The notes under the pieces were generated by a model that was given only the letters and a program-made list of their open reading frames with translations, searched no databases and was not told where the DNA came from. Shown piece after piece: positions 4,164-53,989 of a stretch of DNA of 64,000 nucleotides. The translations under genes and the position numbers were made by a program. The stretch comes from Tubulanus polymorphus (taxonomy: Eukaryota; Animalia; Nemertea): contig NC_134025.1 of the NCBI RefSeq assembly GCF_964204645.1, forward strand, positions 17,893,101-17,957,100. Direction: 5' to 3'. How positions within the stretch are numbered: position 1 is the stretch's first letter; the number at the start of each line of letters is the position of its first letter.

Positions 4164-4666
4164 AGTAATAGATTAATAGGCTTTCAGGCCAAAGGTCGAA
4201 CGGTCGAGCTCATTAAAAACAAAACATTAAAAGTAATTTAAAAATATAATATATTTTCATAACCGTGTGCATTTTATATTATAACTAAATATTTATTCTA
4301 AGATATCAATAATTTAAAAAGCATATAATCAAATATATTTTAATAATAATAATTATTCTATTCTTCAACTGAAATACACATGGTTATGAAAATATATTAT
4401 AGTTTTAAATTACTTTTAATATTTGTTTTTAATGAACTCGACCATTCAACCTTTAACCTGAAAGCCTATTACCCCTATTACTCTTAAAATATTCATGTAA
4501 ATGAATAACATTTAAATTGATAGATTATTCAATATAAAAGTATATATTTACAACATTATTTCAATATTCATATTTGTGTGAGTTAGATTTTTAAACATTA
4601 AAAGTGTTAGTAAAGTGTGATTGAAATAATACATGATATAAATCATTGAACTTCTAAAATCAATTT
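4164..4666 (+). repeat. Left TIR of Polinton A1
   Basis: Near-perfect reverse complement of 18544-19047. Its first 319 bp (4164-4482) are themselves an inverted repeat. Confidence 0.95.
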
Positions 4667-4688
4667 TAATAAAAAATTTAGTATTAAA

Positions 4689-7600
4689 ATGGAAGCAAAT
4701 AAGTACTACTGCCCAACATGTAATATCAATATAGATAAATCCCAAAAAGCAAGACACAATAAAACTAAAACACATTTAGAGAATAAATTGAAACTAGAAT
4801 ATATAGATGATATATTAGAAACTAAATTAGATGAATTAAAGAATGAAAAAGAAACATATAAATGTGATGAATGTAATCAATCATTCAGTGATAAAAGATA
4901 TTATAATGAACATTTAAAATCTAAAAGTCATATTAGAAATAAGAATAATGATATTTTAGGTGAAGATTATTTTGATAAAGATAATGATAAGAAACAGAAG
5001 ACAATTAAAAGCATAAAAAATAAATTAAACAATAAAAGACCATACATGGAAGATGTAAGAAATTATATTAATTCATTTGATAATAAAAAAGATATAGAGA
5101 TAACCGAAGCATTTAAAAGTGATATTGGCCCAGCAGCTATCGACTTTAAATTTCATAAAGGAAAAACATTAGAAGAAAATAAAAAACATTTAGAAAATAT
5201 GAAAAATATTATAAAAATAATTACTGATGTTGAATATCCTAAAATTAGTATATCAGTTAAAGTAAAGTTTATAAAATCTGAAGATAAACCAATATATAAT
5301 ATAAATTCTCATTCACAACATAATATTTCAAAACAACATATAGATGATAAATTAGATAAATGTAATAATGAAGTAAAAACTAAAATAGAAGAGAAATATT
5401 TTGAAGGATCTGGTTTAATATTTGATGAAATAATATTTATGACTTTACATGTTTATAACACAAAATATAATAAGTTAACTAAATCAAAACCAATCGATGA
5501 AAATAATGTATCATATTATAAAGAACCAGATATTGAAGCATCGAGTTATATTAAACTACCATTTAAAACTAATGCTGTAATAAATGTACAAAATGAAGAT
5601 GATAAATGTTTTCTATGGACAATTATAAGTTGTTTACACCCAGTTGAAGATTATAATAAACATACTTATAGATTAACTCATTATAAACCGTTTGAAAATA
5701 ATTATAAGATAGATAAGTATCCTGTTATAATTAAAAACATCCCAAAAATAGAAAGAGATAATAATTTAAGAATAAATGTATTTGATTTAATCAAATTACC
5801 AAATACAAAAGGTAATAATATAAAACATTATACCTTAGAACCTTTATATCTATCAGAAGATTATGATTCAAACGATGTTATAGATATATTATATTATGAG
5901 AATCATTATATGTGGATTAAACAAATAGATTTATTCTTTAGAACAGAAAGTGATCACCATAATAAAATATATCTATGTAGAAAATGTTTACATAGATTCA
6001 GTAATGAAAGTACATTATTAAATCATAAACAATTATGTGAAAATCATGATTATTGTAAATTAGTTTTACCAAATGAAAAAGATAAAATATTAGAATTCAA
6101 AAAATATGATTACAAAAATAAAGTTCCATTTGTTATATATGGAGATTTTGAATCATTAAATAAAGAATTAACTGATCAAGATAGAAAAGAAATATATTAT
6201 AAAAGAAAGAAATTAAATTCTAATGAAAATGATTTTTCAGATGAACCACCAAAAACAAATACAATTAAAAAGATTCATCAATCAGCTGCAGCTTTCGGGT
6301 TATATATTAAATCTGATTATCCAGAACTAATTGAAAGTGAATATTATGATTATAGAAATGAAAATGTTATCAATCATTTTTGTGACTTATTAATTGAATA
6401 TGAAATAAGATTTAGTAAATTATTGAATACAAATATAGAATTTATAATGACAGAAGAAGATAACGAAGCATTTGAGTTTGCAGATAAATGTTATTATTGT
6501 GAAAAGATATTTAATTTTAGAGATAAAAAAGTAAGAGACCATGATCATTTGAACGGAAAGTTTAGAGGCGCTGCACATGAGAATTGTAACTTACAAGCTA
6601 AGAAAATTAACTTTGTACCAGTTATATTTCATAATCTATCAGGATATGATGCACATTTATTCATCAAACAGTTATGCCATAAAATAGAAGAAATTAATAA
6701 TGAAATAGAAAGATTAAATTCAAATAGATCAAAAGATAAAATACCAACTTATGAATTTAGAATGTTAGCTAAAACATCTGAGAATTATGTATCATTCCAA
6801 TTTGGTTGCCTAAGATTTATAGATTCATATAGATTTTTAAATAGTTCATTAGATAACTTATCAAAATCATTAGTTGATGATGAATTAAAGATATTAAAAG
6901 AATATTACCCAAATAATGATGAATTTCAATTAATGAGATATAAAGGAGCAATTCCATATTCATTTTATAAATCACATAATGATTTTAACATAACTGAATT
7001 ATTGAAAGAACAATTCTATGATGAATTAAAAAATGAATATGTTAAAGATGAAGTATATAATAGAACATTGAATATTTGGAATCATTTCAAAATAGAAAAT
7101 CATGGGCAATTAGTAGATATATATTTAAAATCAGATGTATTATTATTAACCGATATATTCGAAAGGATTAGAGATGTAAACCTAAAATATTTTAACATTG
7201 ATCCTCGTCATTGTTATTCATCACCAGGTTTAACATAGGATTGTGGATTAAAATTTACAGATATAAAAATGGATTTGTTAACAAATATAGATCAATTACT
7301 ATTATTTGAAAAATCTATAAGAGGAGGAGTTTCAGGTGTATTAGGGGATAGATATTTCAATGTAAATGATAACCCTGGATATAAGTTATTATATATAGAT
7401 GCAAATAATTTGTATGGTTGGGCAATGATGGAACCACAACCTTATGGAGTATTTGAATTAACTGAAGTTTTACAGAATGAAAATAATGATAAATTTGATT
7501 GGAAGAAAAGAATTCTAGATATTGCAGATGATTCAGATACTGGTTACTTCTTTGTTGTAGACTTAGAATATCCTGAACATATCAAATTTAAATCTAGAAA

Positions 7601-8726
7601 TCTAGCTTACTGCCCCGAACATAAAACTCATGAAGAATTATCAAATTACCAAAAAAGAATTAAACCCGAAAATCATATTCATACAGAAAAGTTAATGGTA
7701 ACTCAAGAAGATGAATATAATTATGTAGTACATTATAGAATGTTAAAGTTTTATTTGAATCAAGGAATGGTTCTAAAAAAAGTACATAGATATATTTCAT
7801 TTAGTCAATCTAAGTGGTTAGAAAAATATATAGATTTTAACACCAAACAGAGAACTGAAGCTAAAACTGATTTCGAAAAAGATTTCTTCAAGTTAATGAA
7901 TAATGCATTCTATGGTAAGACTTGTGAAAATATTAGAAATAGAAATGATATTGAGTTAGTCAGTAATGGTAAAAGAATTAGACATTTACAAACATATCCT
8001 AAGTTCATTGGTAACAGAATATTTGATGAAAATTTAGCTGCAGTTAAAATGAGAAGAACATCAATGAAATTTAATAAACCAATCTATGTTGGCGCTTCAG
8101 TTTTAGAATTATCAAAATTACTAATGTATGAATTCTATTATAATGTATTACAACCACTTTTTGGAGAAAAACGTATAGAAATATTATATTTTGATACTGA
8201 CAGTTACATATTAAAGATAAAAACTGATAACATAACAGATGATTTAAAAACATTAAAACATCATTTTGATTTCAGTAACTATCCTAAAGATCATGAATTG
8301 TTTAGCAATGGTAATAAAAAAGTTCCCGGTAAATTCAAAGATGAATTAGGCGGTGAAGAAATGATTGAATTCATTGGTATTAGATCTAAAATGTATTCAT
8401 ATAAAACTAAAGAACATGAAGCTAAAAAGTTAAAAGGAATAACCAAAAGTGTAGTAGAAAAGAATATTCATTTCAAAGATTACATCAATTGTATATTCAA
8501 TGAAGAAGTTAGAAAACATAAGATGAGATGTTTAAGATCTGAAGATCATGAAATGTTTATTGAAGAAATTGAAAAGATAAGTCTAAACCCATTTGATGAT
8601 TAAAGATATATTCTGGATGATGAAATTCATACAGTTGCTTATGGTTGTAATTAAGATGAATACTTAAAATTTAAAAGAGAAGAAACAAGAGAGAAAGAGA
8701 TAATGAAAAGAATTCTAACGTGTTAA
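4689..8726 (+). pseudogene. polB: Protein-primed family B DNA polymerase (pPolB) with N-terminal C2H2 fingers, vOTU-like and EndoVII-like domains; nonsense mutations
   Basis: ExoI IYGDFES, ExoII FHNLSGYDAH, YIDANNLYG, KLMNNAFYGK, YFDTDS. In-frame stops at 7236-7238 (TAG; TGG in A2), 8601-8603 (TAA; AAA in A2) and ~8652. Confidence 0.95.
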
Positions 8727-8755
8727 TCAAATTTTGATAAAAATATGTATTATAA

Positions 8756-9109
8756 ATGGAGAGTAAACAAACACACAGTGAGAACAACAAATTATTTCTA
8801 GATAGAATTAAAGATATAACAAATGTAAAATCTGTAGATTATAAATTCAAAAAGTTAACAGAATTAACAATCAATAAGAAATATCTAATTACAAATATTG
8901 ATACAGTTACTAATAACTATGGAGATAAATTAGTTATACACTTAGAATATGAAGGATTAAAAGGAAATACATATAAATTCAGAACATATTTACCAGATAG
9001 ATTTCATAGATTATCAAGTGAAGATTTAGAAGAATTATGTTCTGGAGATTTCTATTTCGTATACAAAGGTAAGAATAAAAAAGGGCATCATGAAATAGAT
9101 TTCGAATAA
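8756..9109 (+). CDS. Conserved 117-aa Polinton protein, possibly OB-fold ssDNA-binding
   Basis: Intact and nearly identical at 44519-44872. Beta-rich pattern KKLTEL..YLIT...TNNYGDKLVIHL...TYLPDRF. The function is inference only. Confidence 0.6.
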   Translation: MESKQTHSENNKLFLDRIKDITNVKSVDYKFKKLTELTINKKYLITNIDTVTNNYGDKLVIHLEYEGLKGNTYKFRTYLPDRFHRLSSEDLEELCSGDFYFVYKGKNKKGHHEIDFE

Positions 9110-9123
9110 AATATGTAAAATAA

Positions 9124-9830
9124 ATGGTGGAATTAAAAGAATACAGAATATTTGTTGATTCTAGAAGACTTACAGATTATAAATCACATAATTTACTAGT
9201 ACAATTAGATAGAGAATTCAAGAATTGTGTAGATTTAAAATTAGTAAATATAAGTTTATGTAATTCTTTTTATAATATATCGGATAAAACTATTGAACAT
9301 AGAGCTTGTTTAGTTTTTAATAGACACATAGATTCATTGGGTCTATATATATTTAAAACCGGGGTTATATAATTTAGATACATTAGCACAAGAAATTAAT
9401 AGAAAAGCCTGGCACAAATTAGGTAGTAGTTCTGGGTTTAGTATTAGATTTTTAAAAAGTGATAGTTCTGATAGAATAAAGATAAGGTTGTCTAATAGTG
9501 AAAAACATAAATTTATGGTAAAAAACCTATAGCTAAACTGTTAGGAATTCTTCCAGATAGATCTTTTACAAATATTGATGCTGCTACACCAAACTTAATA
9601 CCTTACACGCATTTTTATATTTATTGCAATTTAATCGATCCTACAAAAACATTCGAAGCAACTAAAGATATAACTTGTAATTCTGGTTTACTAAACATTT
9701 TACCATTGAAGAATGTTAAAGAATTTGGAACGCAAATAAATTATAATTTAACAGAATGTGATTTCAAACCATGCATTCCTCGTTTAAATAATTTTAGATT
9801 AGAAATTAGAAATCATAATGGTTACTTAAT
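9124..9830 (+). pseudogene. Minor capsid protein (penton, single jelly roll), frameshifted and 3'-deleted
   Basis: N-terminal IFVDSRR...FKNCVDLKLVNISLCNSFYNI and C-terminal HFYIYCNLID...LEIRNHNGYLI match the PLV/NCLDV penton pattern. Confidence 0.75.
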
Positions 9831-9860
9831 ATAAAAAGTAAATCATTTAACAATGCATCA

Positions 9861-10079
9861 ATGATTAATAAAGAAAATTATAATATAAAAAAAGTATTTT
9901 ATTTAATTAAATCACCTTTAGAATATTATGAATTAAATGAAGATGGAATTATTGATGATATTAAAAACATATTAACCAAAATATATGATAATCATAAAAG
10001 TAGTAATGAAATAAATGTTGAATTAATCATAAATAAGATAACTATATATTTTGAAGATAGTAATTTTTTTGATAAATAA
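9861..10079 (+). CDS. Hypothetical Polinton protein (partial homolog of 20415-20766 and 45524-45870)
   Basis: Shared C-terminus IIDDIK...INVELII.KIT.YFEDSNFF in several copies. Confidence 0.5.
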   Translation: MINKENYNIKKVFYLIKSPLEYYELNEDGIIDDIKNILTKIYDNHKSSNEINVELIINKITIYFEDSNFFDK

Positions 10080-10301
10080 ATGAGTGATAATAAGTGGATA
10101 ATAACTGGATTATATAATGGCGCATTATTATCAGTGGGAACTGTTGGTTATTCAATGGTATCAAAAAAAGTATTCAAAATGGGAAGTGTTAATGTTGATA
10201 GATTTGATATAAATGATATTTTAAAATTAACATTAGCAGTTACTTTATCTAATTTAACTATTGATTATTTAGAAAAACAAAAATATATTCCTCCCATATA
10301 A
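10080..10301 (+). CDS. Small hydrophobic 73-aa Polinton protein
   Basis: Conserved in all four copies; two hydrophobic/amphipathic stretches. Confidence 0.7.
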   Translation: MSDNKWIITGLYNGALLSVGTVGYSMVSKKVFKMGSVNVDRFDINDILKLTLAVTLSNLTIDYLEKQKYIPPI

Positions 10302-10325
10302 ATGCATAATTATTTTACTAAATAA

Positions 10326-10739
10326 ATGGCTTCTGCAGTTATAACTATTATAGGATCAGCAATTGTTAACGCTTTAGCATTTACTGGTGGCGGTTATTTA
10401 TTCAAGCATATTGATAAAAATGGATCATTAAGACATAACCTAGCATTAGAAAAATATAATAAATCTGCGGAAGAATATAGAGAAAAGAGGCAAAACTATA
10501 TGGATTATATTAACAAGGAATTATATGATCAGAAGATTTCACATAGAGATTTTCAATCAGTTGATGATGCAATGAGTTTATATAACGCGGTAACCAATAA
10601 AGAAAAATTACATCTATACAAACCTAAATTATCAGATTATTATACCCCAAGTAATGAACAGAAGAAATATGAAATAATATGGATTTTAGGCGGAACTGTT
10701 ATTGTTATATTTGTTGCTTATAAGTTTACTAATTATTAA
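10326..10739 (+). CDS. Putative membrane protein (N-terminal hydrophobic helix, C-terminal TM)
   Basis: MASAVITIIGSAIVNALAFTGGGYLF...IIWILGGTVIVIFVAYKF; conserved in four copies. Confidence 0.75.
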   Translation: MASAVITIIGSAIVNALAFTGGGYLFKHIDKNGSLRHNLALEKYNKSAEEYREKRQNYMDYINKELYDQKISHRDFQSVDDAMSLYNAVTNKEKLHLYKPKLSDYYTPSNEQKKYEIIWILGGTVIVIFVAYKFTNY

Positions 10740-10757
10740 TTTTTTTTTGCTAAATAA

Positions 10758-11177
10758 ATGGAAGATAAAGTTGATAATATTGATATTATTCCTCATGATA
10801 TAAATAAAACTAAATTAAAAATATATTTAGAAAAACAAATATTAGCATTTGAAAGTTACTTAAAAGTTAAAAAGAAAAAATATTTAAAATCCAAAATTAT
10901 ATATTATTTGATTATAAGTGGTTCGGTTACAATTAGTTCTGTAATAACATTTCTAGCAATATTCAGTCCATTAACACCTTTAGCTATATCAATTGGTGTA
11001 TTAGGATTAAGTTCAAGTGTTTTAACTGGTATAAGTTCAAAATTAAATATAAAAAGTAATAAAGAAAAAATTAAAACTAATATAAAAGAAATTAATAAAT
11101 TAAAGAATACACTAGATTATATAATAAGTTTAAATGGTCATATAACAGTTGAAGAACAAGATATAAATGGCAGATAG
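10758..11177 (+). CDS. Putative 2-TM plus coiled-coil protein
   Basis: IIYYLIISGSVTISSVITFLAIF and LAISIGVLGLSSSVLTGI. The 3' end is shortened by a small deletion relative to 46561-46937. Confidence 0.7.
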   Translation: MEDKVDNIDIIPHDINKTKLKIYLEKQILAFESYLKVKKKKYLKSKIIYYLIISGSVTISSVITFLAIFSPLTPLAISIGVLGLSSSVLTGISSKLNIKSNKEKIKTNIKEINKLKNTLDYIISLNGHITVEEQDINGR

Positions 11178-11651
11178 TTTTCCAAAAGCTTTCCAATATA
11201 ATAAACCAATTAAATATAATATTCCAGCAATAGATTTTAATAAAGATATTACATATAGAAATGAAGTTTTAAATTCATTAATTGATTTATATATTTATGT
11301 TACTCTAAGTAATAATTTTCATGTAAAGATGGAAAATATATTTCATGTGTATACAATTAATTTCAAAAATTTAAATGAGGCAAAACAATGGCTATTAAAA
11401 TCTAATATGAAGTATTGGCAGAACCAATTAAATTTTGCTGTTTTTTGCGCAACAACAGGTTGTGGAATTAGTTGGAATGATCATTTAAACAAACCAAGTT
11501 TACCATTGATGTTATCACTTTTTAGATAACTGATAATATTCAACATGAAATAATTAAAATAAATGATGATAATAAATCCCATGAAAATGCTAAATTAGCT
11601 TTAACTTGTATAGGAATTGTAATCGGAGGAATATTATATTTTCGATTTTAA
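11167..11651 (+). pseudogene. Conserved Polinton protein with C-terminal TM, internally deleted
   Basis: WQNQLNFAVFCATTGCGISW motif. About 0.85 kb present in A2 (46954-48278) is missing at ~11527. Confidence 0.7.
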
Positions 11652-11667
11652 TTTTTTTATTATGTAA

Positions 11668-13351
11668 ATGGCAGAAGGTGGAGAAGAAATTCCAATGGAT
11701 CCTTTAGATGAACCTGGTATAAGTGCAACCTGATTTTAGTGAAACAAGTTTTAATGACGGTAATGAGCCAGAATATAATACTAATTTAGGTGAAGATGAT
11801 GATTATGATGATGATTATGATGGAATTAATTCCGAATTACGTGAAAAATTAATTAAATATTTACAAGCTCCTGAAAGTGGTAGAATTTCAACTAGAACAG
11901 AAAGAAAAGAATTTATGGAACTATTAGTAGAACAACAAGAAAAATATCCTGATAAACCTATGGAATTATATAAAATGAAATCTAGAGTAACAGATACAAT
12001 TGTTAACGAACTATTACCAAAAGTTGTAATAGATGAAATTGATACTGAAGATGTTGTAGAACAAATTTTTAAAGATGACCCATATTTCACGAATAATTTA
12101 GAATTTAAAAATGATTCATGGTATTATAATCTTGAATTAAATAGGAATACCGTATCAATTCAATTATCTAGAATGGGTCAAGAAAATATTTTTGAACCTG
12201 GAATGCGAGCATTATCTACAATTGAAGGTTCAAAAGGTGGTAGAGAATTTCTCACAATTATATGGAATGCACTCGATAGAATAAATAAAGAAGGATCAAT
12301 TCCTAATATTGATATAAACAAATATTCACCATTTAAAAATCCAAATCCAAATCCTACTGATGTGTATCCAGAAATGGAAGAGTATGGAAATCGATTAGAT
12401 AAATTAAGATCTTCAACGCCCGAAACATCGAGAAGAGATATTCAACAAATTGATGATTATTCAAGTCAATTACCATTAGTATTAGGAAAACAAATTGATA
12501 GATTAAGTGATACAGAAGAACTGATTAATAGTATATCAGATACATCTGGAATAAATCGAATACAATCTTTACTAGAAAAAGGATTACTTGATTTAACTGA
12601 TGAAGAATTAAAACAATTTCCTGAAAAAGCACGTAGAGAAATTAAAGGTATGCAAGAATCAGCTGGTGAAATTGCTAATATTAAGATGAGATTTTCTAAA
12701 ATAACCATGTTAGAAAAAGAATTAGCTAATGCAAATGAAGAATTAAAACAATTAGAATTAAATAAAAATCTTCAGGAAGCTGATTATGAAAGCAGAAAGT
12801 TAGCTTTAGAAAAAAAAATTGATGATTTAGAATATAACAAAGAATTACAGGAAAAAGAAAGAGATATATTACTAAAATCATATGATCTTAATCATATTAA
12901 AAAATTAAAAGTTATTTTTAAAGAGTTAATAATGAAACCAGATTCTAAAATATCATTAAAAGATAGAATAAGATTATTATCTAAGTTAGAAGGAATCACA
13001 ATTCTTTCAATTCTAACAGCTGTAACTATGGTATTCACAACAATAGGTTTAGCAATATCAAATGCTTTGAAATCTACTCCTACTCCCAATAAACCAGATA
13101 AACCCCCGAATGATAATAATTCTATACAAGATAAAGTTAAGGATGGTTTAAAGAAATAAGCAAAATATTTATGGGAACTATCAAAGAAATCTGCTGCAGC
13201 ATTACCAGGAGTTATTGCATCAATTGTTGGTTTTATAATGAAATCTGCAGGAAACATTATTAACTTTGCTGCTGAACATATTATTTTATTTTTAATTACA
13301 GTTGTAAGTGCTATTATTTTTGGTTTAGTAAACGTGATAAAAAATAAATAA
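11668..13351 (+). pseudogene. Large coiled-coil protein with C-terminal membrane anchors
   Basis: Start MAEGGEEIPMD after TAAATG, frameshift near 11720 and lesion at 13157-13159. Heptad-rich region followed by hydrophobic helices ITILSILTAVTMVFTTIGLAI and IILFLITVVSAIIFGLV. Confidence 0.7.
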
Positions 13352-13371
13352 TTAATTTTTTTGTTAAATAA

Positions 13372-14619
13372 ATGAGTGGGAGTTATATCAATCCTTCTAA
13401 GAATCATAGAATATCTAATGCTATTAAAGCAGAAAGATCGCATCATATAATTACTCATAATCCTTCAAATATTAATCCCGATGAAACTTTATATGTTAGA
13501 ATTCCTAGATTAACACAAAATACTTTTTATGTTCCAAATAGTATTTATTTATCAGCCGATATAAAAGTAATTGGTCATGATAATAATTATGTTGTTGATA
13601 ATGTTGGGAGATATTTGATTAAAAAATTAACTATAAAGATTGGTCCAGAAACAGTTTTCTCATTAGATGATTATGATTTATTTATGCATTATAAAGATTT
13701 ATGGTTAACTAAAGCAAATAGAAATAATATGATATTTCAAGGCATCCAATCAGAAAACCAAAATAAATTAAGATCAGAAGCTAATAGCGCAATATTAACT
13801 AATGCTATAGATAAATTGATAAAAAGTATATATGGAAGCAAATATAAAATTCCATTAGACTTTGAATTGATAAATAACAATGCACCTTTATATAAATATG
13901 CAATTCAAGAAGACGTTATATTCGAAATAACATTTGCTCCTGTAAATGAAATTGTATTATCTAGCGTTGTTAAAGATATGAGTTATAAATTATCGAATAT
14001 ATGTTTAGAATATGACACAGTAACTGATGAAAATATTTCAAGTATAATTCAAACTCAATACAATCAAGGATTTTCATTATTATATGATTATATTGATGAA
14101 TTTAAAACTGTAACTATTAATGCAAATGATGAAATTATTAATGAGAATATTAACTTCCCAAGAAGATCTATTAAAGGTATATAATTATTTTTTACCATTG
14201 GAACATATACTAATGGCGCAATAAATGTTGATAATTATTATAATCCTGGAATAACAAAAGTAGAAATAACTATCGAAGGAATAGCAAATAAAATATTTTG
14301 TCAAGGAATGAGAATGATTGGTCAATGGCCAGAAATTAGAAAACATTATATGAATGAAAAAGTAAAATCATCTGAAAATTGTAACATTAATCAAATTGAT
14401 TATTATACCGGTAATAAATATGCATTATGGTTAGATTTTAGAACAACAGAGGATAATTCATTACATGGTTCTGGAAAAAAATTACAAAACACTAAAGATG
14501 GAATACAATTATTCATGACAAAGAAAAAAGGAAGCCTAAATTTCAAAATGCACATTTATATTATATCTGATGCGCAATTAAATATTGTAAATTCTCAATT
14601 AAATAGTGTTATGTATTAA
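13372..14619 (+). pseudogene. Major capsid protein (double jelly roll, ~415 aa), one nonsense codon
   Basis: Size, beta-rich pattern (LYVRIPRL, IKKLTIKIG, NICLEYDTV, ENINFPRRSIKG, ALWLDFR) and position in the morphogenetic module. TAA at 14182-14184 where A2 has TTA; the frame continues to 14619. Confidence 0.8.
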
Positions 14620-14651
14620 AATTTTAACTTTAATAAAAATTTATTATATAA

Positions 14652-14888
14652 ATGCAAGGAGGTAAAGTATATAAACATATTCCATACATCGATACACATG
14701 AAAATAATGATGGTTTATATTATGTAATACCTTGTAATATAGCTTTGATATTTGATCCTATTTCCAAAATTTATAAAACTAAACTAATAGAAATCGATAA
14801 TAATAAAAGTGAAGTTGTTCATAATTTAAGTAATGTAATTGATAATAATGTAATACCTTCTACATCTAATATAGATTATACGTATTAA
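14652..14888 (+). pseudogene. Truncated homolog of the 262-aa Zn-finger protein at 51058-51846
   Basis: First ~73 aa nearly identical to the A2 ORF, then runs into a TACGTATTAAA tandem repeat. Confidence 0.65.
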
Positions 14889-14930
14889 ATACGTATTAAA
14901 TACGTATTAGATACATAGGTATACAAATAG

Positions 14931-15536
14931 TTATTTTATAAATTTATATTCATATGGAAATTGTAATCTCAGTAATAATTTTGAACCTTTATTATTCTTT
15001 AATTTATTCATATATTCATCATGTAATTCAGTAGGTATAATTTGATTTTCTTCTAATGATTGATGCATAGATTTTTTATCTTTGTTATAAAATAAAACTA
15101 GAAATCTTATATTCTCCCTAAAGTCTTTAACAATTGAATTATATTTTTGATTTAAAACCCATGTTGTTATCCCAAAATGTCTTCCTGAGAAAGCTAAATA
15201 ACATAACTCACATAACTTTGAATCTTGTAAATTTGCGCAATCATCTATAATGAATAATGTATTTGATCCTTTATAAGTATCAATTGCTATTTTAATACAA
15301 TTATCTAAATTTTCTTTTACTGTTTTAGGATTTAATATAATAAACTTTTTTATCTTAACTATATCTCTATTATATGTTTTATTCATTTCATAAGTAGGAC
15401 AGAATAATATTATATTATCAAAATGATTCTTATAAATAGTTTCTAACAAGTCTAATATGAAATGTGTTTTACCACAGTTTGTTACACCAGTAACTAACAT
15501 ATTATGCGGTTAGAATATAAATAAATCTTTATTCAT
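14931..15536 (-). pseudogene. A32-like (FtsK/HerA) genome packaging ATPase
   Basis: Walker A GVTNCGKT, Walker B LFIIDD, SGRHFGITTWVLNQKY. An early stop near 15510 is absent from the intact A2 copy. Confidence 0.92.
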
Positions 15537-16618
15537 TTATTCTTTTAATTTTACTAGATAAAATCCATTCATTAAATTTATCATCGTATCCTTTATATTT
15601 CACCAAAGAATACTTTTTTCCTTTAAGAGTTTTTGTTTTCAATACTTTTTCTATTTTGTATTCTATTTCATCTGGATTTGGTACAAGTGATAATTCTTGT
15701 TCATAAAAATAACCTAATATTTCTTCATCTTTTATATCTTCTAGTTTATAAACAATAATTTAGTTAATATTATCTTTTTAATTTTAAATATTTCTTCTGT
15801 AAAATTAGGGGTATAACCTTTATAAAAGGTTTTTCTATATTTAGATATTCTAACGTGCTGTCCAATTTTAAATTTAGGTTCGCCGAAATCATGTGTAACA
15901 AACGCACCATATAAATTATTCCAAACTATTTCCGAATTATCTTCTTTTCTAGCTTGTATAGGTTTCATATTTATAGAACTATGTTTAGAATATTATAACC
16001 TTTCACTAAATCATCTAATACATCGATATATTTATATGTTTCATTAGCAGTAAAATATTTCCACATTCTAGTTTTCAATGTTTTATTAAATCTTTCTGTA
16101 ATAGATGCTTTTTTATCTGAATGTGTTGAAAAATAATCTACATCGTTATCAGATAATAGTTTTTTAAAATGTTTGTTATAAAATTCCTTACCTTCATCAA
16201 ATTGTATCTTATCTGGAATAGCTTCTTTAAATATTGATTTAAAAGCATTTGTAACTTCTATTCCAGTTTTATTTTGGATTGGAATTGACCATGCGTGTCG
16301 ACTGAATATGTCTATAACATTTAATATCCAGAAATATCCTTTGTTGTATTCCTCTAAGTTCTTCATGTCAATTAAATCTGCTTGCCATTGTTGATCGATA
16401 TATGAAACCATAACTTTTCTTGTTAAATAAATTTTATCCATTTTCTTGTGGATTTGATATGTTGGTTGATTTTGTAACCATGATTTTAATTCACTAGATT
16501 TTATATTACCATTTTCAATATCAGATTTAATTTTATTCCATAATTCTGAAACGTTAGAATATGATACTTCACTTTCTGGGTTATAATATAACTCTCTTAA
16601 ATATTGTTCTTTTTTCAT
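15529..16618 (-). pseudogene. int: Retroviral-type (rve) integrase with C-terminal chromodomain, frameshifted
   Basis: WQADLIDM, VIDIFSR, IQFDEGKEF, ERFNKTLK, FKIGQHVRIS, and chromodomain EYKIEKVLK...LVKYKGYDDKFNEWI. Frameshifts near 15990 and 15755. Confidence 0.93.
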
Positions 16619-16624
16619 CTTATT

Positions 16625-17000
16625 TTAATCCATTAATAATAATTTAGATTTAGTTTCAATGGCTTTATGATTTGACTTATTTTCTGGTATGATAGGTTTA
16701 TTGTCATTGGAATCATCTTTATCATCAGATTTGAATTTTGATTTATATATTACACCAGATAATATAAGAACTGTTACTAATCCAATTGTAATATATAATT
16801 TATAATTACTTCCAGCATTAGAAGAATCAGATGGATTATTATTTGAATTAATATCAGATGAAGTCTGTGACTCATTTATTTCAGTTAATTTCTTTTTCTT
16901 AGCTTTTTTTAATTCTGAAGAATCTTTTACCTAATTCTCTTGCCCATTTAATTTGTTTCTCGGATCTAGCCTTTTTCTTAACTCCATCACTCTACTCATT
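16625..17000 (-). pseudogene. Small basic protein with C-terminal TM helix (disrupted)
   Basis: Hand translation KKKARSEKQIKWARELGKR...YITIGLVTVLILSGVIY; homologous at ~53990-54345. Confidence 0.55.
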
Positions 17001-17008
17001 TATTTTAG

Positions 17009-17605
17009 TTAATTTTTGTTCTGATTCATTTTCTGTTTCGCCGTTTGGTTGTCGTGCGGCGCCATCTGTTTCGTTCTTACCTGATTTATATTTATATTCC
17101 GAGGTTTGATATTCGAAAATGTTATGACACCAGTAGAAATAAATGTCGTAACCGATCCTAATTGAAATGAAGCATAACCAACCCATTTTTGTAATTCAGT
17201 CATAACTAAATAGTCATTTTTCAAATCACTATATAATTTATTTTCATCATCAATTGGCATTAACTGGTTACATAACTTAGAATAACATTTGACAATACCA
17301 TCTGAAATAGAATCATTTATTCTAGCTAATCTAGCTTCTTCATAAATCTTAAAATATTTTATTACTTTATCTGGTTTCATAGCATCTAATTCTTGAAATG
17401 TAATTATTTTCCCGATAAACTGATTACATTTCCCGCCAGCAATTAATAATTCTAGATGATGCTTACAATATAAATAGTATTCATAATCTTTATTACAATT
17501 AACTTGAGCACAATTAGTTACAACTGTATCTTTATTATCACTTATACCCAAATCATCTAATGTCTTTTCAATATCAATACTTTTCTTATTAGATTTCTTT
17601 GACAT
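17009..17605 (-). CDS. Hypothetical Polinton protein
   Basis: 198-aa ORF preceded by TAAATG; homolog at 54345-54946. Confidence 0.65.
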   Translation of the reverse strand: MSKKSNKKSIDIEKTLDDLGISDNKDTVVTNCAQVNCNKDYEYYLYCKHHLELLIAGGKCNQFIGKIITFQELDAMKPDKVIKYFKIYEEARLARINDSISDGIVKCYSKLCNQLMPIDDENKLYSDLKNDYLVMTELQKWVGYASFQLGSVTTFISTGVITFSNIKPRNININQVRTKQMAPHDNQTAKQKMNQNKN

Positions 17606-17853
17606 TTATATTAGAGAAAAAAAGCAAAAAAAATATTATAAGTATTCTTCAAATGATGCCAGTATCTCTTTAGATTAATACTAGCTTAGTTAAAGGTAAA
17701 GAATTTTAGTATTAGTTATTGTTTTTTAGTATTTTTTATTTGCGATATAAAGTATTCTTTTTTTAAAAAGAAAATATTAAAAATATAATAGAATTCACTA
17801 GCTAAGTGAAGTTATTGTTTTTTTAATATTTTTTATTTAAAATCTATTATTCT

Positions 17854-18521
17854 TTAACCACTAATTAAAGACTCAACGTATTGTTCATTATTTGGATCAT
17901 TGTTCCATTGATCAATAAATTTCTTTGCCTTTGTTAACTGTTCTAAATATTACTGTAAATCTAGTTTATTAGATTTAATTATGTTTTCCTTCTTTTCTAA
18001 AGGTCTTAGATTCTTCCAATTCCAAATAAGTTTTTTATTGTATTCATCATTCATGTCAAATTTAGAAATCGTAACGTATGATCAATATGAAAGTATTCAC
18101 CATAATTATTTATATTCATTTTATCATCGAATTGAAATATAATCCATGATTTGAGAAATTCATCTGAACAACCCAATAAATTAGATAGTGTTTCTGAATG
18201 TGTTTCTTTGTTGAATAATTGTGTTAATCTAGTCCTTAAGCATTGTTTCAATCTAAAATTAAGATCTGTTTGATATCTTACTCTCATATATTCTGCCATA
18301 TAATAATTATAATGTTCTATATTATCTTCTCGATATTGTTTGGTATATAGTTTAGTGCAAGTTTTACAGCAATATTGAAAACCATCTTTGCTAATCTTAC
18401 GCTTATTAAATTCTATTATAGCTAATTTATCTATATCACATTTAGAACACTTCTTGTAGTATATGTTTATGACACCAGTGTTATTTGTAATATTGATAGT
18501 TTGTGGTTGTTCTGATTGCAT
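17854..18521 (-). pseudogene. HNH endonuclease with N-terminal Cys cluster (NCLDV-like), frameshifted
   Basis: CSKC...SKDGFQYCCKTC and FHIDH motifs; intact homolog at 55194-55853. Confidence 0.8.
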
Positions 18522-18543
18522 TTATTATACATATTTTTTTACT

Positions 18544-19047
18544 AAATTGATTTTAGAAGTTCAATGATTTATATCATGTATTATTTCAATCACACTTTAC
18601 TAACACTTTTAATGTTTAAAAATCTAACTCACACAAATATGAATATTGAAATAATGTTGTAAATATATACTTTTATATTGAATAATCTATCAATTTAAAT
18701 GTTATTCATTTACAAGAATATTTTAAGAGTAATAGGGGTAATAGGCTTTCAGGTTAAAGGTTGAATGGTCGAGTTCATTAAAAACAAATATTAAAAGTAA
18801 TTTAAAACTATAATATATTTTCATAACCGTGTGTATTTCAGTTTAATAATAGAATAATTATTATTATTAAAATATATTTGATTATACGCTTTTTAAATTA
18901 TTGATATCTTAGAATAAATATTTAGTTATAATATAAAATACACACGGTTATGAAAACATATTATAGTTTTAAATTACTTTTAATATTTGTTTTTTAATGA
19001 GCTCGACCGTTCGACCTTTGGCCTGAAAGCCTATTACCCCTATTACT
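18544..19047 (-). repeat. Right TIR of Polinton A1
   Basis: Reverse complement of 4164-4666; the terminal 320 bp (18728-19047) are self-complementary. Confidence 0.95.
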
Positions 19048-22931: not shown

Positions 22932-22948
22932 GATGATATTGATCCATT

Positions 22949-23404
22949 TTAATAACCATAAGGTAATGTTTTTATACCATCATCTAAAATATGCCTTTTA
23001 TCATCAAATGGATTCAAACTAGTTTTTTCAACTTCATTAATGTACATATCGTGATCTTCTGATCTTGAACAATTCATTTTATGTTTCATTACAAATGAGT
23101 TATATAAACACTTTATATAATCTTGAAATTCTATATGTTTATCAACCACATGTTTTGTTATTCCTTTTAACTTTTTAGCTTCATGATCTTTTGTTCTATA
23201 ACTATACATTTTACTTCTTATCCCAACAAATTCAATCATTTCATCACCCCCTAGTTCATCTTTAAATTTACCAGGAATCTTTTTATTATCATTGCTAAAT
23301 AGTTCATGATCTTTGGGATAATAGCTAAAATCAAAATGATGTTTTAATGTTTTTAAGTCTTTTGTTATATCATTTGTCTTGATTTTTAGTATGTAACTGT
23401 CGGT
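22949..23404 (-). pseudogene. polB: pPolB C-terminal part (C-extein) of B-minus
   Basis: TDSYILKIKT...PGKFKDELGG...GIRSKMYSY...KKLKGITK...LNPFDDKR. Confidence 0.9.
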
Positions 23405-23555
23405 ATTTTTTTGGATTAATGGGAACCCAGAATTGAATGTTCCATCATCTGTTGATAAATCATAAACATAGTCAGTTGGGTTATATATTTCAAATAAATC
23501 TTTAACTTCTTCTGTTAATTCTTTTTCTATATGCCTTAAATTAAAACAATTTGGA
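23405..23555 (-). mobile_element. C-terminal fragment of a Pol-c intein (blocks F/G)
   Basis: Minus-strand translation ...YNPTDYVYDLSTDDGTFNSGFPLIQKN|TDSYIL; Asn|Thr junction at 23405/23404. Confidence 0.85.
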
Positions 23556-25806
23556 AATTTTATATTAACAGAAGTAGAAAATGATGATAAAACTAATTGG
23601 GAAAGCGCAATTATGAGTTTAGAAGATGATGCTCCAATTGGTTATTTCTTTGTAATTGATTTAGAATATCCTAATGATGATATAAAATTAAAATATAAAA
23701 ACTTACCATATTGCCCAGAACATTAAGCCGTAGATGATAGTTATCTAAATGAATACCAGAAAAAAATAAAACTGAACGACCATGTTTTTACAGAAAAATT
23801 GATATTAACACAAAATAATGAATGTAATAATATTGTTCATTATAGAATATTAAGATTTTATCTAAAACAAGGAATGAAATTAAAGAAAGTACATAGAAAT
23901 ATTGAATTTAATCAATCGAAGTGGTCCGAAAAATATATAGATTTCAATACTCAACAGAAAACAATATCTAAAACAGATTTTGAAAAAGATTTTTTTTAAA
24001 TAAATGAATAATAGTTTTTATGGAAACATGTGAACATATTAGAAATAGAAATGATATTGAATTAGTAAGTAATTCTGAACGATTGAGACATTTACAATCG
24101 AGTCCTGGACACTTAGGAAATAAAAGATTTGAAGATTATTCAACAGCAGAACAATTAAAAAGAACGTCAATGAAATCTAATAAACCAATATTCATTGGTT
24201 CAACTGTTTTAGAAATATCAAAATTATTAATGTACGATTTTTATTATAATGTTTTACAACCACTTTTTGGGGAAAAGCATATAGAAATCTTATATTTTGA
24301 TTCTGTAATAGCTGATACTCCAATATTATTAAAATACAATAATGAAATGTTAATTAAAAGAATTTCAGAAATAATTCCTAAACAAAATGAACTTTATATT
24401 TCGTATGGTGAAAAAGAATTAATATAAATTAATGAATAAATGGATGGACAAAAAATGAATGGGAAAAATTAAAGAATATAATGAGACATAAAACAAATAG
24501 GAAAATCTATAGAGTTAGAACTAAATTACGGTTTGTAGATGTTACTGAAGATCATAGTTTAATTAAACAAAATCGTGATAAAACCAACTGATATAGAAAT
24601 TGGAGATGAATTATTACATAAAAAATTCTATTCAAGAATGAATCATATGTCATTTGATGAAATAATTAATAATATCTGTAACATTAGAAGAAAAAGAATA
24701 TTTTATCAAAGGATTCTTTATGGGAGATGGTTCAGCAGGTGTTTATAAATATGTTAATTGCACAAAATATTGTTGGTATTTATGTAATCAAGATTTGAAA
24801 TTATTAGGAAGAATTAAAAAATACTGTGAAGAAGTTTATTCACACAAAGTTTTTAAAATCATAGATATTATGAAATCATCAGCAGTTTATAGAATATATG
24901 TAAATAATCCTAAAGATTTAGCAATTAAATATAATGATGAATTCTATATTCACGCAATAGTAAAAAGCAATACTTCAACAAAATAAAAGGTAGTCCCAGA
25001 TTATGTATTAAATGCAAAATATAATTCAAGAAAATGGTTCTTCGTTGGATTCTACGCAGCAGATGGTTTAAAAAAATATACAAAAACAAAAACTTTCATT
25101 TGCTCAAAAAATAAAAGTTGCTATATCAGGATTGATTAAATATTTTATGCAATTCAGTAGGTTTTAATATGAATATTGGATTAATTAAATCTAAACCGAA
25201 AATATTTAAATTAAGGTATGTTGAAAAAGAATTAACTGAAGAAGTTAGAGATTCATTTGAAATATATAACCCAACAGATGATGTATATGATTCAACGACT
25301 GAAGATGGTACATTTAATTGTGGATTTCCATTAGTTTGCTTAAATACAGATGCTTACATACTAAATCAAGACAAAATCAAGACAAATAACATATCAAAAG
25401 ACTTAAAAACATTAAAACATCATTTTGACTTTAGCAATTATCCAAAAGATCATGAATTATTTAGCAACGATAATACAAAAATTCCTGGATAGTTTAAAGA
25501 TGAATCAGGGAGTGATGAAATGATTGAATTTGTTGGGATAAGAAGCAAAATGTATAGTTATAGAACTAAAGATCATGAAGCTAAAAAGTTAAAAGGAATA
25601 ACAAAGCATGTGGTGGATGAACATATAGAATTTCAAGATTATATTAAGTGTTTATATAAATCAATAGTAATGAAACATAAAATGAATTGTTTAAGATCAG
25701 AAGATCACGAGATGTACATTAATGAATTTGAAAAAAACTAGCTTAAATTCGATGATAAAAGATATATTTTGGATGATGGAATAAAAACATAACATAACGG
25801 TTATTA
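23551..25806 (+). pseudogene. polB: pPolB 3' half containing an intein
   Basis: YFFVIDLEYP, FEKDFF, KPIFIGSTVLEISKLLMYDFYY, EILYFD|intein|TDAYIL, GIRSKMYSY; multiple stops and frameshifts. Confidence 0.9.
24302..25345 (+). mobile_element. Intein with LAGLIDADG homing endonuclease at the Pol-c site (degraded)
   Basis: 1044-nt insertion between D and T of YFD|TD. Block A SVIADTPILL, block B VDVTEDHSLI (24535-24564), LAGLIDADG blocks GFFMGDGS (~24711) and GFYAADG (~25047), block F VYDSTTEDGTF, block G LVCLN|T. Confidence 0.9.
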
Positions 25807-27117
25807 AAACCGTATCAATATCATCATACTCGAAATCACTATTGGCTTCTTCATTTTCATCTAATTGTTTTTCTATAATTTCTTTAGGTTCCGTCACTTC
25901 ATTTTTCTCATTTAAATAAAATTCTATATTATTCAACATTTCATCTCGCTCTTTTTGTTTCTTTTTCTTTGTTAATTCATCAAATGGAATTATAATATCG
26001 ATGTTTAAATAATTTACAATGTTATTTCAAAAGAATTCATAATTTATTGAATCTGTTATTTCATCATCCGCACAATATTTTAATATTTTTATGAATGTTT
26101 CTTTTGTATTTTTCAAATCTTCTTTTGTTAATTTAGGTTTTTTATAATAATCGTTAAATAATAAATATAAATACATTTTCTTTCCTTTTGTGTCACATGT
26201 TAATGGCATAATTTTTTTTATTATATCTTTCTTAGTTATTTCACCATTTTTATTTTCTGTCATTTTCATTTTTTCAAGCAATTGCATATATTCTAGTGTT
26301 TGATCTTCTGTAGAAAATATTTTAAAGATTTCATCTAGATATTTTAGTTTTGGTTCTATTAGAAAATCTCTAGTTTTTCCATCAGCCCATAAATTTCTAT
26401 GCCATCCACATTCATTACAAAATATCATAGAATCTTCTTGTTTTAGATACTCGTAAATACATTGTGGGAATTTTTTTCTATCATATCTTGGCAATAGATG
26501 TTCATTAAGTTCTTGGTATTTACTTACGTTTACTTATGTTTTATTGTTTTATTATGTAGATTTGAATTGCTTGTTGTAATATTCAATATTAACAATAATA
26601 TGTTTTTCTTACTAATTCATTATATTGTTTTTCTAAATTTTCAAGTGTTTCTTTATTATCTGGTAACGTTTTCTCATATTTTATTTTTTCCAACATATTA
26701 TTTTTTCTTTCATTTAATTCTGCTTCAAATTTATAAGAAATTTTATTTAAATGTACTTCATTTAATTGGTGTTTCTCCCAATCTTCTATATTTTCAGGAC
26801 TAAATTTTATTCGACAATGCTCACAGAAATGATTCTTTGTATTATTCTTGTCATAAAATAAAAAAGGTCTTTCCCAAATAGGTTCAACTTCAACCGAATT
26901 ATTAAAACTCTCGTTACTATCAACATTAACTATTAAGTCATTAAATTTACACGTCTCTGAATGTTTTTAAAAATAATTTCTAGAGAATGTTTTATTACAA
27001 TTTGGACAGTTAAATTTTAGGGGGTTTATAATTTTCATCATGTTTTTTCATATGTCGAGCCATATTACCTTTTCTGTCAAGTTCACCACAAATTTCACAT
27101 TCTATCTTCTCGTCCAT
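25790..27117 (-). pseudogene. Multi-zinc-finger protein of B-plus (decayed)
   Basis: Start MDEKIECEICGEL; collinear with 21639-22931. Confidence 0.75.
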
Positions 27118-42197: not shown

Positions 42198-44564
42198 ACA
42201 TTATAATGACAGAAGAAGATAAAGCAGCATTTGAGTTTGCAGATAAATGTTATTATTGTGAAAAGATATTTAATTATAAAGATAAAAAAGTAAGAGACCA
42301 TGATCATTTGAATGGAAAGTTTAGAGGCGCTGCACATGAGAATTGTAACTTACAAGCTAAGAAAATCAACTTTGTACCAGTTATATTTCATAATCTATCA
42401 GGATATGATGCTCATTTATTTATCAAACAGTTATGCCATAAAATAGAACAAATCAATAATGAAATAGAAAGATTAAATTCAAATAAATCAAAAGATAAAA
42501 TACCAACTTATAAATTTAAAATGTTAGCTAGAACATCTGAGAATTATATATCATTCCAATTTGGGTGTTTAAGATTTATAGATTCATATAGATTTTTAAA
42601 TAGTTCATTAGATAACTTATCAAAATCATTAGTTGATGATGAATTAAAAATATTAAAACAACACTACCCAAATAATGATGATTTTAATGAGATATAAAGG
42701 CGCAATTCCATATTCATTTTATAAATCACATAATGATTTTAACATAACTGAATTATTGAAAGAACAATTCTATGATGAATTAAAAAATGAATATGTTAAA
42801 GATGAAGTCTATAATAGAACATTGAATATTTGGAATCATTTTAAAATAGAAAATCATCGGCAATTAGTAGATTTATATCTAAAATCAGATGTATTATTAT
42901 TAACCGATATATTCGAAAGGTTTAGAGATGTAAACCTAAAATATTTCAATATTGATCCTTGTCATTGTTATTCAAGTCATTCAGGATTAACATGGGATTG
43001 TGGTCTAAAATTTACAGATATAGAAATCGATTTGTTAACAAATATAGATCAATTATTATTATTTGAAAAATCTATAAGAGGAAGAGTTTCAGGTGTATTA
43101 GGGGATAGATATTTCAATGTAAATGATAACCCCGGATATAAGTTATTATATATAGATGCAAATAATCTATATGGTTGGGCAATGATGGAACCACAACCTT
43201 ATGGAGTATTTGAAATAAGTGAAGTTTCACAACATGAAAATAATGATAAATTTGATTGGAAGAAAAGAATTCTAGATATTGCAGATGATTCAGATACTGG
43301 TTACTTCTTTGATGTAGATTTAGAATATCCTGAACATATTAAATTTAAATCTAGAAATCTAGCATACTGTCCAGAACATAAAACTGTAACTCATGAAGAA
43401 TTATCAAATTATCAAAAAAGAATTAAACCCGAAAATCATATTCATACAGAAAAGTTAATGGTAACTCAAGAAGATAAATATAATTATGTAGTACATTATA
43501 GAATGTTGAAGCTTTATCTAAAACAAGGAATGGTTCTAAAAAAAGTACATAGTTATATTTCATTTAGTCAATCTAAGTGGTTAGAAAAATATATAGATTT
43601 TAACACCAAACAGAGAACTGAAGCTAAAACTGATTTCGAGAAAGATTTCTTCAAACTAATGAACAATGCATTTTATGGTAAGACTTGCGAAAATATTAGA
43701 AATAGAAATGATATTGAGTTAGTTAGTAATTGTAAAAGGATAAGGCATTTACAATCATATCCTAAGTTTTTAGGTAACAGAATATTTGATGAAAATTTAG
43801 CTGCAGTTAAAATGAGAAGAACTTCTATGAAATTTAATAAACCCATTTATGTTGGAGCATCAGTTTTAGAAATATCAAAATTACTAATGTATGAATTCTA
43901 TTATAATGTATTACTACCACTTTTTGGAGAAAAACATATAGAAATCTTATATTTTGATACAGATTCTTTCATATTAAAGATAAAAACTAATAACATAACT
44001 GATGATTTAAAAACATTAAAACATCATTTTGATTTCAGTAACTATCCTAAAGATCATGAATTGTTTAACAATGATAATAAAAAAGTTCCTGGTAAATTCA
44101 AAGATGAATTAGGTGGTGAAGAAATGATTGAATTCATCGGTATTAGATCTAAAATGTATTCCTATAAAACTAAAGAACATGAAGCTAAAAAGTTAAAAGG
44201 AATAACCAAAAGCGTTGTTGAAAAGAATATTCATTTCAAAGATTACATCAATTGTATATTCAATGAAGAAGTTAGAAAACATAAGATGAGATGTTTAAGA
44301 TCTGAAGATCATGAAATGTTTATTGAAGAGATAGAGAAGATAAGTTTGAATCCATTTGATGATAAAAGATATATTCTGGATGATGGAATTCATACAGTTG
44401 CTTATGGATGTAATTTAGATGAATACTTAAAATTTAAAAGAGAAGAAACAAAAGAGAACGAGATAATGATAAGAATTCTAACGTGTTCATCAAATTTTAA
44501 TAAAAGTATGTATTATAAATGGAGAGTAAACAAACACACAGTGAGAACAACAAATTATTTCTAG
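42198..44564 (+). pseudogene. polB: pPolB, 5'-truncated, intein-less allele
   Basis: DHDH EndoVII motif, FHNLSGYDAH, YIDANNLYG, KLMNNAFYGK, YFDTDS (empty site 43958/43959); frameshift near 42685. Confidence 0.95.
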
Positions 44565-44872
44565 ATAGAATAAAAGATACTTCAAATGTCAAATCAGTAG
44601 ATTATAAATTTAAGAAGTTAAAAGAATTAATAATCCATAAGAAATATCTAATTACAAATATTGATACAGTTACTAACAAATATGGAGATAAATTAGTTAT
44701 ACACTTAGAATATGAAGGATTAAAAGGAAATACATATAAATTCAGAACATATTTACCAGATAGATTTCATAGATTATCAAGTGAAGATTTAGAAGAATTA
44801 TGTTCTGGAGATTTCTATTTCGTATACAAAGGTAAGAATGAAAAGGGGCACCATGAAATAGATTTCGAATAA
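44519..44872 (+). CDS. Conserved 117-aa Polinton protein (possible SSB)
   Basis: Intact homolog of 8756-9109. Confidence 0.6.
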   Translation: MESKQTHSENNKLFLDRIKDTSNVKSVDYKFKKLKELIIHKKYLITNIDTVTNKYGDKLVIHLEYEGLKGNTYKFRTYLPDRFHRLSSEDLEELCSGDFYFVYKGKNEKGHHEIDFE

Positions 44873-44886
44873 AATATGTAAAATAA

Positions 44887-45507
44887 ATGGTAGAATTAAA
44901 AGAATACAGAATATTTGTTGATTCTAGAAGACTTACAAATTATAAATCTCATAATTTACTAGTACAATTAGATAGAGAATTCAAGAATTGTGTCGATTTA
45001 AAATTAGTAAATATAAGTTTATGTAATTCTTTTTATAATATATCGGATAAAACTATTGAAGATAATACTTTTTAAATTCATATTAGAAATGTAAATAAAT
45101 GGTTTCATCTAATTTTAAAACCAGGATTATATAATTTAGAAACATTAGCTCAAGAAATTAATCGAAGAGCACGGTTGAAAATTAGAAGAGATGATAAATT
45201 TTTAATTAGATTTATAAAAAGTGATAGCACAAATAAAATTAAAATAAAGGTATATGATGAAAGTCAACATGCATTTATGGTAAGGAAACCTTTAGCTAAA
45301 CTGTTAGGAATTGTACCAGATACTGTTACAGGAAACGTAGACGGTAATTCAAATATAATACCTTTTACACACTTTTATATTTATTGCAATTTAATTGATC
45401 CTACAAAAACATTTGAAGCAACTAAAGATACAACATGTAATTCTAGTATATTAAATATTAATTTAAATTAATTAATTTATGAATTAGTTATAAGATGTAG
45501 AGAGTAA
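44887..45507 (+). pseudogene. Minor capsid protein (penton), disrupted
   Basis: IFVDSRR N-terminus, stop at 45073-45075, deletion near 45465. Confidence 0.75.
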
Positions 45508-45523
45508 TTTTTTCACTATATAA

Positions 45524-46937: not shown

Positions 46938-46953
46938 TTTTTTAATTATATAA

Positions 46954-48278: not shown

Positions 48279-48294
48279 TTTTATAATTATGTAA

Positions 48295-49755: not shown

Positions 49756-49776
49756 TTAATTTTTTTTGTTAAATAA

Positions 49777-51025: not shown

Positions 51026-51057
51026 AATTTTAACTTTAATAAAAATTTATATAATAA

Positions 51058-51846: not shown

Positions 51847-52149
51847 GATATTAATTATATTTAACTCAAATAATAATATTAGTTGAAAATTGTATAAAAT
51901 AATAGTAAATAAAAAAGGGGGTTTTAAGTATTCAAGGTATTTAAGGTATCTAATACAATCTAATACAATCTAATACATAAAATATCTTATTTTATAAACT
52001 GATATTCATATGGAAATTGAAACCTCAGTAATAATAAATAACCTTTATTATTTTCAAACTTATTCATATATTAGTTGAAAAAATAAAAATAAATTGGTTG
52101 AAAATTGTATAAATAATATTTGTTTAAAAAAGGGGGTTTTAAGTATTTA

Positions 52150-52270
52150 AGGTATCTAATAGGGTATCAGGTATTAGGGTATCAGGTATTAGGGTATCTA
52201 ATAGGGTATCAGGTATTAGGGTATCTAATAGGGTATCAGGTATTAGGGTATTTAATAGGGTATCTAATAC
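52150..52270. repeat. Minisatellite (GGGTATCAGGTATTA / GGGTATCTAATA) between convergent gene blocks
   Basis: Directly visible tandem 12-15-bp units. Confidence 0.85.
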
Positions 52271-52286
52271 ATAGGTATACAAATAG

Positions 52287-53981: not shown

Positions 53982-53989
53982 CTTATTTT

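Follow-up and report, generated by a model that had tools for sequence, protein, structure and literature searches.

Animal genomes are said to lack inteins. The closest described systems are the inteins that occupy the Pol-c site of RNA-primed PolB polymerases in giant viruses such as mimivirus; the site is defined in PMC549080, and 67 viral DNA polymerase inteins are reported in PMC5784728. The intein described here, which lies in the protein-primed polymerase (pPolB) of a Polinton, resembles the giant-virus inteins of PMC549080 in its xxD/TD site, a length of ~335-355 aa, the residues Ser1, Asn and Thr+1, and a two-motif LAGLIDADG region, and belongs to one family with them by profile and tree, at ~36% identity to the mimivirus intein. 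It differs from them in its host gene, a Polinton pPolB, in its many integrated copies in a likely animal genome, and in forming a clade of its own.

Three further systems share part of this arrangement. On nuclear scaffolds of Klebsormidium, Tetrabaena and a labyrinthulid, viral-like DNA polymerases carry inteins (PMC10710043) that likewise sit within an endogenous-virus polymerase in a eukaryotic nucleus, but those hosts are algae and a protist, and Polintons, animals or metazoa are not mentioned in the main text of that paper. HNH and VSR nuclease inserts occur in Polinton pPolBs (bioRxiv 10.1101/2023.08.22.554363; PMC11071308) and so also place a nuclease domain inside this polymerase; in the accessible portions they are described as nuclease domains, without a splicing domain, whereas the present insertion comes with a complete Hint domain and interrupts the catalytic motif. 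One sentence of PMC11071308 suggests that such inserts stem from intein invasions, and the word "intein" does not occur in the available text of 10.1101/2023.08.22.554363. Finally, the iridovirus inteins cited in PMC549080 (an insect virus) also reside in a DNA virus of animals; unlike the present intein they are Gln-ended and belong to a large non-integrating virus outside the animal genome.

The host gene is of a new kind and the host likely belongs to a kingdom said to lack inteins, the intein family and the site being already known. The original prediction knew of no description of such an intein, and our search agrees: no report of a pPolB intein was found among the top-ranked records of a literature, with subscription journals and Repbase largely outside it, that combines inteins, Hint or LAGLIDADG with Polintons, Mavericks, adintoviruses, mimivirus or metazoa. 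A case may still be listed in the supplementary material of PMC10710043 or PMC8502044.

The window, which is the whole stretch of 64,000 nucleotides analysed, contains two Polintons with an empty Pol-c site (A1 and A2) and two fragmentary filled copies (A3 and A4), whose features are collected in Table 1. In six-frame translation, the polymerase frame of A3 stops at 24301 with ...EILYFD and restarts at 25346 with TDAYIL, Ala being residue +3, and the 1044-nt insertion between them carries blocks A, B, C, E, F and G in this order. The insertion point lies directly behind the leading Asp of PolB motif C, and the insertion is closest to the inteins of that site, as the definition of Pol-c has it; its removal restores xxDTD(S/A), as in the empty A1 and A2, which read YFDTDS, the window copy itself being out of frame.

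Table 1. Intein, polymerase and Polinton features in the window (positions counted from its first nucleotide).
Feature	Position	Strand	Basis
Pol-c intein with LAGLIDADG homing endonuclease, broken	24302..25345	+	profile match and frameshift-aware alignment
Block A, Ser1, SVIADTP	24302..24322	+	alignment to relatives
Block B, TxxH, VDVTEDHSL	24535..24561	+	intein profile; TIGR01445 E 6e-4, under cut-off
Block C, first LAGLIDADG helix, GFFMGDGS, acidic residue retained	24711..24734	+	Pfam sub-threshold, intein profile, alignment
Block E, second LAGLIDADG helix, GFYAADG, acidic residue retained	25047..25067	+	intein profile, alignment
Blocks F and G, VYD...VCLN, terminal Asn, without penultimate His	25283..25345	+	profile, alignment
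N-extein of copy A3: pPolB, 5'-truncated, broken, ends YFD	23568..24301	+	
C-extein of copy A3: broken pPolB C-terminal part, starts TDA (Thr+1)	25346..25807	+	
Polinton A1: TIRs, 6-bp target duplication, pPolB, capsid-like ORF, A32 ATPase, rve integrase	4164..19047	+	
Empty Pol-c site in A1 pPolB	8195/8196	+	
Polinton A2, 5'-truncated	42201..57861	+	
Empty Pol-c site in A2 pPolB	43958/43959	+	
Copy A4, second filled copy: last ~50 intein codons, ends KN, cut off by inversion	23405..23554	-	
C-extein of copy A4, open frame, starts TDS	22952..23404	-	

The identity of the insertion as an intein at the Pol-c site (YFD/TD) of a Polinton pPolB is confirmed by the intein profile, by family profiles and by the modelled fold of a relative. 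A profile built on 99 Pol-c inteins of RNA-primed PolBs (those of 320-420 aa among 108 with the site pattern, within the best 120 of 1452 matches) runs colinear with the insertion over three frames, from its first to its last position, with i-E values of 3.5e-35 for the nuclease part and 1.3e-17 for block B. Frameshift-aware alignment to P0267, the nearest unbroken relative, scores 944 and pairs identical residues in 209 of 338 matched columns, while 10 shuffles score between -139 and -203. The broken pieces give sub-threshold Pfam matches alone (Intein_splicing, E 0.086; LAGLIDADG_3, E 0.003). Of what the original prediction had read from the sequence, the extent and flanks of the insertion, its blocks, Thr+1, the empty YFDTDS motifs of A1 and A2, the frameshifted state, the intein identity, the site and the host gene all stand; the HMM search that it proposed against intein and LAGLIDADG profiles gives a colinear match with the Pol-c profile and sub-threshold matches with Pfam and TIGR01445.

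The copy in the window retains Ser1, the block B TxxH, the block F Asp, the terminal Asn and Thr+1, and the penultimate residue in the two window copies is Leu and Lys, not the His that is common, though not universal, in class 1 inteins. Its intein is interrupted by two stops, ending at 24427 and 24986, and by five frameshifts, near 24435, 24577, 24680, 25092 and 25138; the divisibility of 1044 by three is incidental because these five frameshifts lie inside. Two more frameshifts, near 25220 and 25273 in the profile alignment, were dropped, the nearest relative reading through both in one frame. The host polymerase is likewise broken in both exteins, and since stops and frameshifts in the intein are joined by these further breaks, copy A3 is dead, and neither splicing nor homing is possible from it. 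Assembly error was rejected as the cause of those frameshifts that separate contigs cover: an X1 contig, which may come from the source sample, spans two of them and an X2 contig one, both without gaps.

A1 has the components of a Polinton/Maverick (pPolB, rve integrase, packaging ATPase, TIRs and target duplication), with a weak capsid match (E 0.01), and the EndoVII domain of its pPolB is a feature separate from the intein. As A3 and A4 are fragments, their assignment to Polintons comes from 75-78% DNA identity to A1/A2 and from the polymerase tree; A3 belongs to a subfamily different from that of A1/A2. A tblastn extension of A4 to 23710 was judged spurious, with DNA identity ending at 23545 and reads joining at 23552-23554.

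Unbroken relatives of the window intein occur in other pPolBs. The nuclease piece of the window led to P0001, an RNA-primed PolB that has an intein at its Pol-c site, and a search with that intein returned 1452 proteins; among the best 120, 118 carry PF00136 and none PF03175, and mimivirus PolB is included (P0090, intein from residue 1053, in agreement with the position in PMC549080). In a full HMMER search P0121 ranks first of 318: the C-half of its part-length intein is 60% identical to that of the window, and the pPolB C-extein behind it shares 76% identity with A2. A profile search yielded 39 longer proteins, eight of which are pPolBs with a full-length, open-frame intein at the same site (P0267-P0273 and P0277), four of them 1500-1700 aa long. 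Pairwise identity among the eight is 39-86%, and every one keeps Ser1, the block B T..H, both LAGLIDADG Asp residues, the block F Asp, the terminal Asn and Thr+1; no mini-intein form was seen among them. The penultimate residue is His in five, Lys in two and Ser in one, and is Lys in 94 of the 108 RNA-primed PolB inteins within the best 120 of 1452, that of mimivirus included. TIGR01445 exceeds its cut-off in four of the eight, and PF14528 in P0267, P0272, P0277, P0320 and P0325.

For P0271, an AlphaFold model based on 24 aligned rows has high confidence in the intein (block means mostly 82-97) and low confidence in the exteins. With this model, Foldseek returns homing-endonuclease inteins as the best PDB matches (7qsu, E 4e-16; PI-PkoII; PI-PfuI; PI-SceI), together with matches to the I-DmoI fold, and a Hint fold is accordingly predicted for P0271, a relative and not the broken window copy itself. 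The P0267 sequence has one match in the PDB, PI-PkoII, and the ESM Atlas leads for P0268 all lie under 0.9. One of the eight relatives is labelled by its source as the MAG of a clam symbiont, which suggests a bivalve host for it. Single-protein scans of viral contigs gave one chance match or nothing, and alignment-based scans gave 184 loci, of which one is a pPolB (L082), 158 match the RNA-primed PolB probe and 25 match neither; among these 184, no filled pPolB was found alongside a Polinton capsid, ATPase or integrase. L082 1-4197, a metagenome record, is a further intein-bearing pPolB, its intein interrupted by a single break. ENA contigs of 34-282 kb carry short, broken pieces of inteins (P0123, P0127, P0129, P0130 and others) that resemble P0269 by eye. 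Related inteins also reside in non-polymerase hosts, namely a radical-SAM-like protein and topoisomerase II-like proteins (P0302, P0005, P0075), and the intein family therefore also moves to non-allelic sites.

We consider it probable that the insertion is a decayed copy of a motif-C intein lineage of Polinton pPolBs, likely acquired in one giant-virus-type gain and likely kept by homing among copies in animal genomes. In a 65-row intein tree, rooted on four other-site inteins, 10 pPolB inteins form one clade (100/100) inside 51 RNA-primed Pol-c inteins, near-duplicates and three long-branch rows (P0246, P0303, P0302) having been left out and the bootstrap being not fully settled. In a 38-row mixture-model tree to which those three rows were added, they join as sister (97/93) and the support of the pPolB clade falls to 93/70. 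The window row in these trees carries ~18 misread residues. On this evidence a single origin of the pPolB inteins is likely, and a giant-virus-type donor is favoured, not fixed: the sequences compared were collected with a query of giant-virus type, the root inteins come from the same viruses and archaeal Pol-c inteins are outside the trees, a sampling that leans towards the giant-virus type.

An unlikely alternative is that the donor of the intein was a PolB of phage or archaeal type and not a giant virus. The sister rows of the pPolB clade (97/93; 98) would fit such a donor, P0246 and P0303 being prokaryote- or phage-looking PolBs and P0302 a radical-SAM-like protein, all by eye; they are, however, long branches flagged as unsure by the tool, and the group they form with the pPolB clade still lies inside the RNA-primed set. 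The predominance of PF00136, with mimivirus, among the best 120 of 1452 matches and the labelling of 14 of 80 viral loci as giant-virus MAGs also speak against it. The original prediction had named nesting among NCLDV Pol-c inteins as support, and within this sampling the pPolB inteins nest among giant-virus-type Pol-c inteins; of its giant-virus origin, membership of the mimivirus PolB in the same family and the position inside that family hold, and the donor, probably of giant-virus type, may be of prokaryote or phage type. Its picture of one invasion of one element gives way to that of an intein lineage which is old and widespread among Polinton polymerases.

The polymerase tree (35 rows, without near-duplicates and P0121, its extein row for the window having 6 off-frame residues) requires five changes between filled and empty states, four of them forced by strong branches. 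The empty P0275 is sister to A3/A4; the empty P0311 and the filled P0308 are 99.7% identical over 599 extein residues; and the 15 examined members of the P0268 cluster (121 in all) comprise five with a filled junction, one with an empty junction and a 99.7% identical extein, and nine with neither. Among the EndoVII-bearing filled pPolBs the intein and polymerase trees branch identically, so that most of the pattern can be accounted for by vertical descent and loss, with no need of long-range homing. P0277, which belongs to another pPolB class, departs from this: its intein is 39-46% identical to the other pPolB inteins and nests in their clade (98/95 and 99/89), while its extein is barely alignable and reaches 19-25% identity where more than 170 residues align; an AU test does not reject a tree with the P0277 intein outside the rest (p 0.06). 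From these trees, the intein appears to have descended mostly with one pPolB subclade, to have undergone at least four losses or regains, and probably to have jumped once into the distant class of P0277.

A purely passive history, in which one old gain was followed by descent of an intein that splices and no longer homes, with empty sites arising by precise loss or by conversion from empty copies, appears improbable. The identical branching just described, the p value for the outside position of P0277 and the equal GC of intein and exteins (0.237 vs 0.243 and 0.257) accord with it. Against this, both acidic residues of the nuclease are kept in all eight relatives, down to 39% identity and with no reduction to a mini-intein, P0277 resembles the others much more in its intein than in its polymerase, and near-identical filled and empty forms coexist (P0308, P0311).

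Three of nine listed sequencing runs contain part of the stretch, all under one species label, and the intein occurs in three samples from two studies under one such label. The raw genomic run X4, which belongs to another study, shows at 80% likeness a depth of ~170-260 along the intein's first 750 bases and of 83-157 along its remainder, against 520-670 on the adjoining extein, and at least 113 of its reads join across the empty site. Depth at 90% likeness is 31-58 for the intein vs 14-23 at 29224-31000; read depth is not equal to copy number. It is clear, however, that many copies exist under the one species label, some with a filled and others with an empty site, roughly one in three being filled among copies alike enough for read placement. 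At the first stop, 176 of 183 placed reads differ from the window copy, and at one frameshift 162 of 219 do, and those breaks are therefore not common to most copies; the reads are short and unable to demonstrate a wholly unbroken copy.

That the stretch represents a symbiont, a protist or a free virus in the assembly is very unlikely: no listed read or contig spans it whole, but A1 has its 6-bp target duplication, a DDE_Tnp_4 transposase and a LINE are interspersed with the decayed copies, the LINE endonuclease having its nearest Atlas clusters in a few recorded arthropod, mollusc and rotifer members, the intein recurs across the three samples, and an X1 contig shows one difference over 25021-25279 at a depth of 51, against 54-135 for flank contigs. 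The host, which the original prediction took to be an animal, is animal-like by these neighbouring elements and, judging by the LINE, very probably an invertebrate.

Splicing of unbroken pPolB inteins is predicted because class 1 intein chemistry is established (PMC7765530) and the residues are kept. In an unbroken copy, an acyl shift at Ser1, aided by the block B Thr and His, would be followed by attack of Thr+1 and cyclisation of Asn, which would rebuild the DTD motif of the active site. A polymerase that retained its intein could not function, and it is difficult to see how an insertion at the catalytic Asp would stay in open frame in divergent polymerases if it did not splice. Homing, likewise probable, is suggested by the kept nuclease residues and the mixed filled and empty populations: once released, the intein protein would cleave the empty sites of sister Polintons, and repair templated by a filled copy would insert the intein there. 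An integrating element present in many copies would keep supplying empty sites, unlike a single-copy animal gene. The wider proposal, that animals carry true inteins of a Polinton-specific lineage derived from giant-virus polymerases, still splicing and homing in several invertebrate lineages and jumping between divergent polymerase classes, seems to us slightly better than an even bet.

A multicopy Polinton intein in a likely animal genome, with unbroken relatives, makes the question of intein absence in animals testable. If pPolB inteins splice and home in animal cells, their absence from host genes would reflect a lack of opportunity to spread and not a chemical barrier. The lineage would also make DNA exchange between giant-virus-type and Polinton polymerases traceable and offer a new set of inteins and homing nucleases; if it is active, it would record co-infection and recombination of giant viruses and Polintons and could act as a gene drive or a weapon among the genome's own proviruses. 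The intein resides in a provirus gene and not in a host gene, and its family is known.

Several minor features accompany these elements. A3 and A4, 86% identical, are joined head to head at ~23545-23565 and so form a large imperfect inverted repeat (21391-27366). A pair of zinc-finger ORFs (21639-22842, forward strand; 25919-27117, reverse strand) is located downstream of both intein-bearing polymerases; absent from A1 and A2, it may mark the filled subfamily. The last 60 nt upstream of the site (24242-24301) are 92-93% identical between the filled A3 and the empty A1/A2, against 58-87% further upstream, reflecting either co-conversion or plain conservation of the motif. The regions 37148-42097, upstream of the truncated A2, and 60876-63046 contain ORFs and fragments that we take to be LINE-like and Penelope-like, respectively, and in which Pfam finds no matches. 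A YqaJ nuclease and the DDE_Tnp_4 transposase lie tail to tail at 2265-3829, a pair presumably Harbinger/ISL2EU-like. The A1 pPolB has an in-frame stop at 7236-7238, and in the A1 terminal repeats (4164-4482 and 18728-19047) the outer 319 bp are self-inverted (78-82%) and hairpin-like.
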